DNA from: Escherichia coli O127:H6 str. E2348/69
GTDB lineage: Bacteria; Pseudomonadota; Gammaproteobacteria; Enterobacterales; Enterobacteriaceae
NCBI RefSeq assembly: GCF_000026545.1
Contig: NC_011601.1
Strand: one strand, 5' to 3'
DNA: 64,000 bases
Position numbers: made by a program
In this document: piece by piece, positions 59,801 to 64,000 of the stretch
Layout: every line of letters begins with the position of its first letter
Numbering within the stretch: the first letter of the stretch is position 1

Positions 59801-62800
59801 GCTGCGCCTTGCGTCTGCCGTTCTGGATCACTGCCACCGAACCGGGCGCGTGCGTGCTGTGGTGCATCGTTCTGCTAACGCTGCTGAGGGAGGCCGCTAC
59901 GTTGGGCGGACGTGTGGTGTTAGCGTTACGAATCTAAGGGCTATGATTGGCAGCTATCGCAAGCAATACACTGGTATTGGCATGTTATATCCATAACTGC
60001 GGGGTAATAAACCCCGCCGAAATAGTAGCGTAGCCACTCAAACAGGAATGTTGTAGTAATGACAAATTGCATTAGTTAGTAGAGCTGGTGCAGCAGACGC
60101 TGCAATATTTAGCGTCCCCGCATATGCTTTACCAATCATATTTACAACCCACTTCCCAAGGCTATCACTGAAATTGTCCGGGGTAGTTGGGGCGGGTGAT
60201 TCTTGTATAGCTTGATGAAGGCTCTTAATATCTTCATCATTAGCGCCCCAATCCTTGAGCTGCTTTTCAAGCGAGTTGAAGTCTCCAGCGTTGACAGTAT
60301 TATTTTGTGAAATGTCCCCGTTACCAGAGCCAATAACGCCAGCATTGTTTACGTTGCCATGAATGTTGGTCACGTTATGGACAGTCATTGGCGCTACCTC
60401 TTTTTCTCTTAATGAAAACTGTAACCCTTCGCCTAAAATACCCTTTGACTCTAAGTCTAAAGACCAGTCGAGGATCTTATTCCTAACGGTAGTAATTACA
60501 TGTTCTAGTACACCAGCGCTTATAACCCATACCATCTCAGTCTTTTGTCCGATACTTTGAGCTAATGTATCAGCCATCCAATCCGGGAGAGGTAAAAAAG
60601 GGTTTTCTCCTTTATTGCTCATCTTTTTTATAGATGATATTGATTCTGTAATGTGAAACGTTGATACCATTGCATTTAATTCCGCGTCGTTGAAGTTGAC
60701 CACAAGCGGAACCCAGCTCTGATGTTGGGGACTATATGCTTTTAACTGCGATTGACCTTTCCTGTATTCAGGAACCGTATCAAAGCTGGGATAGCCATTT
60801 AATTCGAGCTGTATCCACTCGGTCAAATCGCTGAGGCCGAGCTTCACTGCAATCATTTTGGCCTTCATGAGTACAGATAAAATGTCGGAGTCGGGATCGC
60901 ACGCTAGTGCTTGAAGTTCAAGAACTGGTGAGTTAGCCATATCAAGACCTTAGTATTGTTTTGATAAGGTATCTTACCCGCATCGAACCATGCAGTCTAA
61001 GGTTCGCAGGCCAAACTCACCCATGAGTTAGATGTTTATTCCTTCATGCTGGATGAGTTCGACATACTTACCGATCTCTATAGGGGAAGCTGCATTTTTC
61101 GAGTAAGTTTTGAAGCTCTCTGTACTCCCGCGCTCATGACCGACGAGCAGGGCAATACGATCTTCTGGCACTTGAGCACGGTCGAGCTGTTGCACAAAAG
61201 CATGGCGGAGTGAGTGAAACACTTTTCTCTCTGCGGCAGGCTCGCCAAGAGCTTTACGCTTTGCTCGCGTGAATTGCTGCGTATGCCACGTTGAGCGCTT
61301 CCCATCGGCCCGGTCTGTTATTGATGCGTGATAGAACAGAAAACCGCTATGTGTGGTCTTGAGCAATGACTTCACGAGAGGGATTATCTTGCTGTGTACA
61401 GGGACGATTCGCGCCGCGCTCTTAGTCTTCCCCTCGGTGATCTCAAAGCACAATATACCCTCGATAGTTTTAATACTGCTTTCACGTAGCGTACATATCT
61501 CATTGATCCGCATACCGCTGTATGCACCAATAGCCGTTACCGCCTTCATCTCGTCATCAAGCAAGGCATAGACCTTTGCCAGCTCTCCCGGTGCGAAGAC
61601 TTCATAGCTGACCTTGCTGCTTTTTGCTTCGAGCGCATGACCGCGCCAAGGATTGTCCTGTGGTGCATCGTGATAGCGATTGCGTGCCAGATCCCATATC
61701 TGCGCCAGTGCGCTTATATAGTTTTGGATAGTTTGGGGCGCTCGCTCAGTTTTGAGCTTATCTAACCAGCCTGTAACTATGGTTCGGTTAATATCCCGCA
61801 ACTGAACATCTTTCTTTTTCAAGTGGGTTAACAGCACCTCTACGGCTTTGTTGGTCTTGGATAACGTGGTTAGCTTTCGCTTCTCGCTGTATTGAAGCAG
61901 GTACAAATCACGCATTTTTAGCAAGGAAGGGCAAGCCTGAATCGATGCACCAAACGATGCGGGGGCTTCCTTGGCGTACACACTGACACGGCGTAGCTCA
62001 TCAATGATTTGGTCTACAGATGAGCCGCCTTGTGGCTTTAGCAGATTCCGTAAGCGAGTCCATTCCAGAGCAATAGCATCTCGAAACAATCGCGCTTGGC
62101 GTATGTCTCGTGTTCCTGTGCTTTTCATAAAGTAGCGCTTCCCTTGGAACAGGTGGCGCATATAGCTGGGAATAGCTATCCGCACGAGGTAATTCCCGCA
62201 GGGATCTAAAACTAGATAACGATCTCTCTTGAAACTCATACAAACCCCGGTTATGTTGTCGGGGCTTTTTCATGGCTAAACAGTCTGTGAAATGTGCCGG
62301 GGTCATGAGCTTTAGTCTAGCTAGTTCAACAAGTTAACGATGATTGTTGAAGCAAGCTAAGTCGCTATAACCCGTGCCGGTTCGAGTCCGGCCTTCGGCA
62401 CCACATCGTATGCAAATCGAGTCGCTCAAGGGCGGCTTTTTTTGTGTCTGGGATCCATTAGTTACCTATCTTTCTCGCTATTTTAACTCTCTCAGAGCCA
62501 ACCAATTTCAACCCATCGCAAACGAAAAATGTTGGTACAGGCGTTGGTATTTTCGGTTCGATATTAATTTGTATTAGCTCAGTCCTGATCTGACAGCTAT
62601 CTGCCAGATCAGGTTCGGATTAATACATTATATCTGCCCGCCTACACCTTTAAACTTCTCAATAAACGCGACGATCTTCTGGAAAACCGTCTGTTTTTTC
62701 GTCTTATATTGCGGGTTTAACGGACTGAGTTTTGGCAATGTCTCGTTTAATTCCGTGCCATTTTCGGTGGCGTATTCGCGTTTTAAAGACGTGCGAATAT

Positions 62801-64000
62801 AGCGTTTCGCCGCCTCTTCATTGAGATTTTCTTCTTTAATCAACGCTTCTGCTTCACGTTGCTGTTCGCGTTGAGCAAAGGTAAAGAACGCGTCAATGAT
62901 GCTGGCTTTATCCGGCAAATCATCCAGGTTCGTTTGCTGAATAAAATCGACCACCAATCCTTCTTTAGCACGGTTCCCAAGGCTTGAACGAATTAAGCGT
63001 TTGACCTCTTCGGTCATTTCGCCCTTACCTTTGTTTTGTCTGTTGTGTTCGAAAATCAGTCCAAGGATATAATCCAGGTTTATTTCCTGAGACTTCAGCA
63101 AATCGACCTCAAAAACCACGTCATCCCAGTCGGTGGTTGATTTTTCTTTTTTGTCAGCTTCTTTCTCACGGCGCTGCCAGTCACGAATATCGTTATAGGC
63201 AGAACGATAATCCTGAATCTTGCGTTCAGCAGGGAGACGAATCGTTTGCAATTCAGCGAACTTTTCATCATCCACATAATGTTCTGCTTTGAATTTTTCT
63301 ACTGCAACAGGATCGCTAAGATCGATTTGTTGCAGGGCTTTCAGCGTGGCAAATTCATCATAGTTTTGCAGGATGTTCTCGGCACGCAGGTATTCACCAA
63401 ACAGTTTAACGAAGTCTTTCTTCTCTTTTTCACTTTCAATACTGGCAGGGTCAGGGAACCGTTGTTCCAGTTCTGCAACTACTGCCATAAAGCCGCGCTT
63501 AGCTTCACCAGTAGCAGCATCAGTAAAGCCTTCCATATACTCTGCATAACTCTTTTCTAACACTACATTTTTGGTGTTTTTGTCACCAAACAACGTTATG
63601 GCATCGATGGTTGAGCGTTCCAGATCGCGGAAAGTGACGATATTACCGAAGGTTTTAGTAGCGTCATAAATGCGGTTGGTGCGGGAAAATGCCTGCATCA
63701 GGCCGTGAAAACGCAAGTTTTTATCGACGAATAGCGTGTTCAATGTTGGAGCGTCGAAGCCGGTTAAAAACATCCCCACGACAATTAATAGATCGATATC
63801 CTGATTTTTAACCCGTTGGGCTAAATCACGATAGTAGTTCTGAAAACCGTTACTGTCGGTGCTGAAGTTAGTTTTAAAATAGCTGTTATACTCACGAATT
63901 GCAGCATCAAGAAACTCTTTAGCACTGCTGTCCATTGCGCTGGTATCAAAAGTTTCATCAGAAATTTCACCAATGGCATTTTGTTCTTCATTGGCGGTAA

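Follow-up and report, generated by a model that had tools for sequence, protein, structure and literature searches.

The open reading frame that runs off the right-hand end of the stretch of Escherichia coli O127:H6 str. E2348/69 DNA analysed here (64,000 nucleotides, hereafter the window) almost certainly encodes the C-terminal 456 residues of HsdR of the chromosomal type IC restriction-modification (R-M) system of this EPEC strain, which is located in an integrase-less block with an apparently later 15-kb island inserted in front of it. Restriction by the E2348/69 system (Hobson et al. 2008) and the defence hotspot #37 at leuX (Hochhauser et al. 2023) are already known, and the picture of the former as a barrier to transformation of EPEC E2348/69, and of the leuX site as the E. 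coli defence hotspot with the highest occupancy, is unchanged. The details that appear to lie outside the published descriptions are incremental: the apparently greater age of the block relative to the 15-kb island, the intB-type spacer at its leuX-side junction, and a fossil of its right end in K-12. Both the accessory restriction module and the tRNA hotspot were recognisable from the raw sequence alone. The coordinates of the features are collected in Table 1.

Table 1. Features of the leuX-hsdR region, numbered from the first nucleotide of the window.
Feature	Position	Strand	Basis and remarks
Intact leuX (tRNA-Leu, anticodon CAA)	47258..47342	+	ARAGORN and repeat mapping; last 31 bp are the left repeat copy
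Site-specific integrase, 403 aa, right end of the ~15-kb island	61028..62239	-	ORF list; RefSeq annotation 'site-specific integrase'
Right repeat copy (attR), displaced original leuX 3' end	62373..62403	+	Exact 31-bp match to 47312-47342
leuX-downstream spacer	62404..62575		blastn and MAFFT; 75-79% to the K-12 leuX-intB spacer
leuX intrinsic terminator (8-pair stem, 4-nt loop, T7 run)	62419..62443	+	Terminator scan
Hairpin (13-nt arms, 4-nt loop), 15 nt downstream of the hsdR stop	62584..62613	-	Folding, plasmid comparison
hsdR 3' part, codons 583-1038 and stop	62628..64000	-	ORF list; PDB match; Pfam; motif check

HsdR and its type IC partners

The stop codon of the frame is found at 62628-62630, exactly 225 bp beyond position 62403, as the preliminary description had estimated for an hsdR C-terminal region following the repeat. 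The frame is open to the end of the window, which it leaves at codon 583 of 1038, with the last 44% of the gene inside. Translation of this part (62631-63998, minus strand) yields a 456-aa sequence, and its alignment to residues 584-1038 of EcoR124I HsdR (PDB 2w00, E = 2.6e-290) is gapless, with ~12 substitutions visible. The full protein of 1038 aa is colinear with EcoR124I HsdR (2w00) over residues 1-1038 (2266 bits), and the published identities to EcoR124I are 97% for HsdR and 98% for HsdM (Hobson et al. 2008, PMC2518929). This near residue-for-residue match of HsdR identifies the system as type IC, the family of EcoR124I, EcoDXXI, and EcoprrI. The Pfam domains of the protein are EcoR124_C, T1R_D3-like, SWI2_SNF2, HSDR_N, and ResIII. 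The part encoded in the window comprises motif V (TGFD, residue 661), motif VI (QAFSRTNR, residue 684), the helical domain, and the C-terminal domain, while the full-length protein keeps D151, E165, K167, K220, GSGKT at 310-314 (with K313), DECH at 408, TGFD, and QAFSRTNR. In a check over the full 1038 aa, the motifs of a PD-(D/E)xK nuclease and of an SF2 helicase/translocase are all in place, and the reading frame is intact at 1038 aa. Deletion of hsdR from E2348/69 (strain NH4) raises transformation up to 10^4-fold, and modification still works in NH4, as DNA passaged through this strain escapes restriction (Hobson et al. 2008, PMC2518929).

The window is 100% identical to E2348/69 chromosomes. 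The hsdS and hsdM genes and the rest of the block were read from the public E2348/69 record, which is identical to the window over the 22 kb of overlap checked. In this extended record the three type I subunit genes are found together, contiguous and all on the minus strand, in the order hsdM-hsdS-hsdR, so that hsdR is the last gene and its 3' end is directed toward leuX. In the type IC family hsdR is set apart from hsdS and has a promoter of its own. The gap between hsdS and hsdR is 121 bp here, and a sequence scan of it finds one weak promoter-like site (9/12 consensus matches). The PADLOC families at the locus are REase_I, Specificity_I, and MTase_I. HsdM shows the Pfam domains N6_Mtase and HsdM_N, and matches EcoR124II HsdM (7bst_D) with 1149 bits over 518 aa. 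HsdS shows Methylase_S in two matched stretches, and its matches to EcoR124 HsdS (7bst_A) are confined to residues 1-25, 163-250, and 297-408. The conserved N-terminal, central, and C-terminal regions of HsdS are present, and the TAEL repeats, LTAELTAELTAEL, number three as against two in 7bst_A; three is also the number in EcoR124II HsdS. The target-recognition domains are unrelated to those of EcoR124, which points to a different specificity.

As established for the family, an M2S1 complex of these subunits would methylate a bipartite target that the two variable HsdS domains define; at an unmethylated target, and with the R subunits joined, HsdR would translocate DNA with ATP and cut at a distance. 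In the literature searched, no relevant published methylome or recognition sequence for E2348/69 was found. The type I system of E2348/69 considered in the RptR paper (NAR 2025) is another one, DarTG-containing and with different protein accessions.

The hairpin beyond the hsdR stop codon

The inverted repeat that the preliminary description proposed as the hsdR terminator is present, with the arms CCTGATCTG at 62584-62592 and CAGATCAGG at 62605-62613, and it forms a strong hairpin past the stop codon. As RNA of the hsdR strand, the hairpin folds with -27.8 kcal/mol (z = -6.8; none of 200 shuffles folds as well), while on the plus strand the value is -24.7 kcal/mol (z = -5.0). One G-U pair is formed on the hsdR strand, where an A-C mismatch is found on the other. 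Plasmid pHXH-2 has a related hairpin at the same place, 19 bp longer than that of E2348/69. In the five chromosomal loci compared the hairpin is invariant, and covariation is therefore uninformative.

The folding energy, the G-U pair on the hsdR strand, the location only 15 nt past the stop codon, and the longer counterpart in pHXH-2 would all suit a canonical rho-independent terminator of hsdR, but other observations speak against one: the stem is not followed by a U-run on the hsdR strand, where ACUGAGCUAAUACAAAUU is found instead, the hairpin of pHXH-2 is likewise without one, and a consensus terminator scan makes no call. Equally, the hairpin could stabilise the 3' end of the mRNA, or it could be a scar of the cassette edge, because the homology between plasmid and chromosome ends inside it; this homology begins at 62593, and the hairpin lies at the boundary of the DNA common to plasmid-borne EcoR124-type hsd cassettes. 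We regard a canonical terminator as possible, though somewhat doubtful. More broadly, the hairpin belongs to the hsd cassette, and it would most likely serve the 3' end of the hsdR mRNA, either in termination or in stabilisation.

The leuX site, the 15-kb island and the defence block

The 3' end of leuX is contained in an exact 31-bp direct repeat, CGTGCCGGTTCGAGTCCGGCCTTCGGCACCA, with copies at 47312-47342 and 62373-62403; the match extends on neither side. The second copy closes, on the right, the ~15-kb integrase-bearing island, in which both marks of a tRNA-integrated island are found, namely the integrase and the bounding direct repeats of the tRNA 3' end. Insertion of this island into the 3' end of leuX would have moved the hsd block 15 kb downstream, together with the original tRNA end and its terminator. 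The terminator has the same sequence in A25, and the K-12 counterpart has another stem sequence with the same T-run.

Rightward extension, which the preliminary description had called for, places hsdS and hsdM directly upstream of hsdR, followed by more defence genes and then by nanS-nanM-nanC-fimB, in agreement with its suggestion that a type I R-M system forms a second accessory module at the leuX hotspot. The block occupies ~12.7 kb, the leuX-to-nanS interval, and consists of the type IC R-M genes, DUF4942, mcrBC-like genes, a gene for a phosphorothioate-DNA-binding HNH nuclease, and an HNH gene. Its G+C content is 43%, versus 54% for the neighbouring core. The nanS-nanM-nanC-fimB genes on the right are conserved, and both anchors, ahr-leuX and nanS/nanM/nanC-fimB, share 96-97% identity with K-12. 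With leuX-side and fim-side anchors, known defence systems inside, and variable presence, the locus is a member of E. coli defence hotspot #37, the leuX site (Hochhauser et al. 2023, PMC10121019; also EcoSal Plus review 2025); type IC systems have been reported at leuX, at about 4% (PMC12707154).

Neither an integrase nor an integrase fragment is found in the hsd block by annotation and Pfam of the extended record. Searches from hsdM to fimD with the exact 31-mer, with a 20-mer core allowing <=3-4 mismatches, and with blastn-short gave no third leuX repeat, and comparison by blastn-short of the leuX 3' end and its flank with hsdM-fimD and with the K-12 KpLE2 gave only chance 9-11-mers. Being without an integrase and without a further leuX repeat, the block is not a repeat-bounded tandem island, so that of the 'tandem second island' suggested earlier only the second accessory module at leuX is retained.

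The locus could still be a genuine tandem accretion of two integrative elements if the block were the decayed remnant of an older island of the intB/KpLE2 type, from which the integrase and the distal att have been lost. The ~170 bp past the displaced leuX end are 75-79% identical to the K-12 leuX-intB spacer, compared with 96-97% for the core, and the homology ends ~20-30 bp short of the start of K-12 intB. In elements with a P4-family integrase, the leuX-to-integrase spacer is element DNA. The spacer of E2348/69 (62404-62575) is not similar to its counterpart between leuX and the integrase in the P4-like satellite of STEC1012 and resembles only that of the K-12 intB type. At the same right-hand junction, next to nanS, K-12 retains the phosphorothioate-DNA nuclease gene as a frameshifted fossil, and the low G+C content of the block would also be in keeping with such an origin. 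On the other side, the block contains no integrase or fragment of one, no third leuX repeat is found between hsdM and fimD even in degenerate form, the spacer could be fast-evolving chromosomal DNA downstream of leuX, and 68% of the occupants of hotspot #37 are without a detectable mobile element (Hochhauser et al. 2023, PMC10121019). Descent from a decayed island is judged unlikely, although by no means negligible, and would be a refinement compatible with the explanation of the locus as a type IC defence block at leuX.

The edge of the type IC cassette coincides with the post-stop hairpin, where the homology to plasmid and phage-plasmid copies ends, and the cassette abuts the diverged intB-type leuX-integrase spacer at the point where an integrase gene would be expected to start. 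In a more specific history, which we consider rather improbable, an old KpLE2-like island would have lost its integrase and cargo to a plasmid-borne EcoR124-type cassette that took their place, leaving an immobile block that would spread only by homologous recombination via the leuX and nanS-fim flanks; the leuX-proximal junction would then record, as a fossil, how occupants of hotspot #37 without an integrase come about. If true, this replacement would give a testable answer to how the defence systems of hotspot #37 move without mobility genes, a question left by Hochhauser et al. (PMC10121019).

In respect to the order of events, a junction-specific query finds the leuX/hsdR junction in 317 of 5426 complete E. 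coli genomes (5.8%), always on the chromosome and usually right beside an intact leuX. This figure replaces an earlier count of 978 genomes, which is too high for the leuX-linked locus, since a plasmid copy of hsdR is by itself enough to clear the 80% coverage bar. The comparison with the leuX regions of other strains, also proposed at the outset, found the same block abutting an intact leuX in A25, NC101, and LH85-a, where the 15-kb island is missing, and the same leuX/hsdR junction in STEC1012 is preceded by another element, a P4-like satellite. The homology to the island-less strains begins exactly at the 62373-62403 repeat, and among the best 30 matches listed only 7 records reach to the left of it. 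Since the block is beside an intact leuX in most carriers, we infer from this distribution among genomes that the restriction block is the older of the two and the 15-kb island a later insertion ahead of it. The arrangements in A25, NC101, LH85-a, and STEC1012 refute the opposite view, in which the hsd genes are cargo of the 15-kb leuX island and its true right end lies beyond the 31-bp repeat; this is highly improbable, despite the distance of only ~390 bp between the integrase and the hsdR stop codon, as the start of the homology at the repeat and the 7 of the best 30 matches listed also stand against it.

The preliminary description had also noted that in K-12 leuX is not next to a restriction locus and that hsdR lies about 90 kb away, and this is correct: K-12 leuX (4,496,405) is followed by intB/KpLE2, and hsdR (4,583,249-4,586,761) is ~87 kb distant. 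The check for the canonical hsd locus, the site of type IA, IB, and ID systems, in its core context came out against it, since the canonical immigration-control region of E2348/69 (symE to yjiA) is located separately, ~45 kb further on, with only a 210-bp hsdR fossil, and the leuX-side hsd genes are flanked by leuX and, at their far end, by the genes from DUF4942 to nanS, in place of symE/mcrBC-mrr/yjiA. There is practically no chance that the hsdR described here is the canonical locus moved beside leuX by deletion or rearrangement, a reading that has the mere ~45 kb between the two sites and otherwise the shared gene name in its favour, and that is refuted by the match to the EcoR124 (type IC) and not the EcoKI (type IA) family, with 23% identity over 181 aa to K-12 HsdR (Hobson et al. 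2008, PMC2518929), by the gene order M-S-R versus R-M-S in K-12, and by the separate symE-yjiA site, with the fim, uxu, and yji core genes in normal order between the two loci.

Comparison with known systems

The chromosomal type IC system of E2348/69 shares with EcoR124I/EcoR124II (plasmid R124/3; PDB 2w00, 7bst) a colinear HsdR of 1038 aa (~97% identical), a near-identical HsdM, the same conserved HsdS regions with their TAEL repeats, the order M-S-R with a gap before hsdR, and a related hairpin past hsdR. It differs in its chromosomal location at leuX, whereas EcoR124 is plasmid-borne, and in the unrelated target-recognition domains of HsdS. In EcoprrI, the type IC system on the chromosome of E. 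coli CT196, the gene of the PrrC anticodon nuclease is located between hsdS and hsdR. The E2348/69 system is likewise a chromosomal type IC member in E. coli, but its locus is without prrC and has only the 121 bp between hsdS and hsdR. EcoKI (type IA) is also a type I R-M system and likewise occupies a variable defence locus, in the same quarter of the chromosome, while the family, the gene order (R-M-S), and the locus are different; the EcoKI site, the immigration control region, is the published hotspot #36, which in E2348/69 holds the 210-bp hsdR fossil.

As an occupant of hotspot #37, the block has the typical anchors, with leuX to its left and nanS-nanM-nanC-fim to its right, and a content of mostly defence genes. 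The occupant in K-12 is KpLE2, and in E2348/69 it is the type IC/McrBC-like block together with a further integrase-bearing island at the tRNA. In general, the E2348/69 occupant differs in no way in kind from the published description of the hotspot.

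leuX junction and hsdR

The window belongs to the chromosome of enteropathogenic Escherichia coli O127:H6 E2348/69: three assemblies of this strain match positions 62300-64000 at 100% identity, and a 22-kb overlap with NZ_LT827011.1 is base-for-base identical. The leuX gene, the second copy of its 3' end (the repeat) and the integrase gene just inside that copy delimit a ~15-kb island (47343-62372) integrated into the leuX 3' end. This island appears to be rare, judging from sequence matches: among the 30 best matches listed, only 7 records also reached into the island, over the 73 bp on the left side of the repeat. 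Besides the right-end integrase it encodes a recombinase-family protein, a DEAD/DEAH helicase, two proteins with HNH/endonuclease domains and many small hypothetical proteins. A second presence/absence polymorphism lies just left of leuX, in the yjgR-ahr interval (45913-46043), where the idn (L-idonate) genes are absent in E2348/69, A25 and NC101; in K-12 they neighbour ahr, and in LH85-a they lie between yjgR and ahr.

Coordinates of features around the leuX junction
Feature	Position	Strand	Remarks
leuX, tRNA-Leu (CAA)	47258-47342		ARAGORN, one tRNA gene found; its last 31 bp (47312-47342) are repeated
Site-specific integrase, 403 aa	61028-62239	minus	just inside second repeat copy
Second copy of last 31 bp of leuX	62373-62403		exact, without extension on either side
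leuX terminator	62419-62443		called by consensus terminator scan
Inverted-repeat arms	62584-62592 and 62605-62613		extend to 13 nt, 4-nt loop
Hairpin folded as hsdR-strand RNA		minus	-27.8 kcal/mol, z-score -6.8, one G-U pair
Hairpin folded as plus-strand RNA		plus	-24.7 kcal/mol, z-score -5.0, A-C mismatch at the G-U position
hsdR stop codon	62628-62630	minus	225 bp past second repeat copy

The preliminary description placed the end of a type I hsdR gene after the repeat, with every coordinate correct. The minus-strand frame is open from the stop codon to the last base of the window, and the translation of 62631-63998 (456 residues) aligns without gaps to residues 584-1038 of EcoR124I HsdR (PDB 2w00, E = 2.6e-290) and shows roughly a dozen substitutions. 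The full gene, taken from the extended record, is intact and codes for 1038 aa, the length of EcoR124I HsdR, which it matches end to end (2266 bits). The protein shows the HSDR_N, SWI2_SNF2/ResIII, T1R_D3-like and EcoR124_C Pfam domains, the nuclease residues D151, E165 and K167, a GSGKT Walker A motif, DECH (408), and helicase motifs V (TGFD, 661) and VI (QAFSRTNR, 684), the last two within the window.

The inverted repeat proposed as the hsdR terminator does form a hairpin, which starts 15 nt past the stop codon and is invariant across the five chromosomal loci compared, but it is doubtful as a canonical intrinsic terminator: the hsdR strand has no U-run after it, either in E2348/69 or on plasmid pHXH-2, and the consensus scan that called the leuX terminator did not call it. 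It may plausibly act at the 3' end of the mRNA. Homology with EcoR124-type cassettes on plasmids (841 matching plasmid records, many from IncF or phage-like plasmids) begins at 62593, inside the hairpin, and pHXH-2 carries a longer form of it; the hairpin is therefore part of the hsd cassette and marks its edge.

Type IC system and the surrounding defence block

Upstream of hsdR, the extended record shows a 121-bp gap followed by the overlapping reading frames of hsdS (408 aa) and hsdM (518 aa). HsdM and the M protein of EcoR124II are near-identical (1149 bits). The likeness of HsdS to EcoR124 HsdS is confined to the N-terminal, central and C-terminal conserved regions, whereas both target-recognition domains are unrelated; the central region has three TAEL repeats, compared with two in the EcoR124 PDB chain. 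By their sequences, these features of HsdR, HsdM and HsdS are the defining ones of the type IC family. From the comparison of EcoR124I with EcoR124II, three TAEL repeats correspond to a 7-nt non-specific spacer in the recognition sequence, and by analogy we predict such a spacer for E2348/69.

The hsdS gene (L001 23567-24793, beyond the window) varies among E2348/69, A25 and STEC1012; in NC101 an ISEc45-family IS110-like element interrupts it, and in LH85-a it is frameshifted. Within a single conserved block, specificity thus turns over and at times is lost.

Rightward of hsdM come a DUF4942 gene, a 684-aa McrB-family AAA protein and its McrC partner, an HNH_2-domain gene with the annotation phosphorothioated-DNA-binding restriction endonuclease, and a small HNH gene. 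Past this block lie the conserved nanS (a pseudogene by annotation), nanM, nanC and fimB. The DUF4942 protein (277 aa, L001 26653-27486, divergent from hsdM) is conserved and has no PADLOC match; in each block examined, its gene separates the type IC operon from the mcrBC-like genes. nanS (L001 33353-33919) is a truncated pseudogene by annotation in each of the four carriers of the type IC/McrBC-like block examined (E2348/69, A25, NC101, LH85-a) and is intact in K-12 and STEC1012; DNA homology of the E2348/69 gene to K-12 spans its whole length (97%).

The rightward extension, which could have revealed the canonical hsd locus in core context, instead runs through defence genes to nanS, and the canonical site is separate. 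The immigration control region of E2348/69 lies ~45 kb further on, between symE and yjiA (L004 21738-24579), and has lost its hsd genes, the interval containing just a 210-bp fragment of the hsdR C-terminal part and a 616-aa gene annotated as a 3'-5' exonuclease. The preliminary statement on K-12 was borne out, as was the reading of a second accessory module. In K-12, intB and the ~40-kb KpLE2 element come after leuX and reach nanS; the EcoKI genes lie between symE and mrr as hsdR-hsdM-hsdS, with hsdR 87 kb away from leuX.

Origin of the block

The block is clearly accessory, with a G+C content of 43% (vs 54% in the adjoining lptF-leuX core) and a leuX/hsdR junction present in 317 of 5426 complete E. 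coli genomes (5.8%; 301-bp query covering leuX spacer, hairpin and hsdR end), all matches being chromosomal. It contains no integrase, and no third leuX repeat, exact or degenerate, is found up to fimD; consequently, the idea of a tandem second island stands as to accessory DNA but not as to an integrative element by the usual criteria.

In A25, NC101 and LH85-a leuX is intact and the block directly adjoins it, 225-228 bp separating hsdR from the tRNA; the genes between hsdR and nanS, the phosphorothioate-DNA nuclease gene included, follow the order of E2348/69. STEC1012 has a P4-like satellite at leuX, ahead of the same hsdR junction. The most parsimonious history has the block lying beside leuX first and the 15-kb island integrating into the tRNA gene later; this insertion would have displaced the original tRNA 3' end, the leuX terminator and the block. 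On this history the block is the earlier resident rather than a second insertion.

The STEC1012 satellite (L006, CP061270.1, 2875-15000) carries integrase, psu, ogr/delta, alpA and ash genes, and AbiEi/AbiEii replace the mcrBC-like genes further downstream. CP061270.1 is labelled as a 1.2-Mb plasmid but is probably a mislabelled chromosome fragment, since it contains the core genes yjgR-like, nanS, nanM and fim.

Past the displaced tRNA end, ~170 bp are homologous to the K-12 leuX-intB spacer with just 75-79% identity, the core flanks (ahr-leuX and nanS-fimE) being 96-97% identical to K-12. The homology stops about 20-30 bp short of the K-12 intB start; the leuX terminator stems differ in sequence between the two strains, and both hairpins are followed by the same T-run. 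The spacer bears no resemblance to the leuX-to-integrase spacer of the STEC1012 satellite. The phosphorothioate-DNA nuclease gene, which ends the E2348/69 block, survives in K-12 as a frameshifted fossil (residues 8-96) beside nanS, so KpLE2 and the type IC block share their right-hand junction. The fossil (NC_000913.3, L003 42250-42515) lies between yjhR and nanS and is 74-90% identical to its E2348/69 counterpart (L001 31877-32124). The diverged spacer and the fossil hint, rather doubtfully, that the block may descend from, or have overwritten, an intB-type island whose integrase did not survive.

Comparison with known systems

The preliminary interpretation holds in essence, subject to two caveats: the block is an integrase-less earlier resident without a bounding repeat, and the hairpin, though real, is questionable as a terminator. 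The RptR/DarTG type I system of E2348/69 (PMC12255303) is distinct, with a different locus and different proteins. Exactly this hsdMSR cluster was identified by Hobson et al. 2008 (PMC2518929), with 97% (HsdR) and 98% (HsdM) identity to EcoR124I and a 122-nt gap ahead of hsdR; deletion of 323 hsdR codons raised transformation with large low-copy plasmids by up to four orders of magnitude, with modification intact. The leuX site was defined as defence hotspot #37 by Hochhauser et al. 2023 (PMC10121019), with an occupancy of 97.3% among E. coli genomes, 31 defence system types present there and no detectable mobile element in 68% of occupants. Type IC systems account for 4% at this hotspot (EcoSal Plus review 2025, PMC12707154), in agreement with our 5.8% of complete genomes. 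The leuX hsd system is thus already known: it is itself well characterised, its family is well known and its hotspot has been published.
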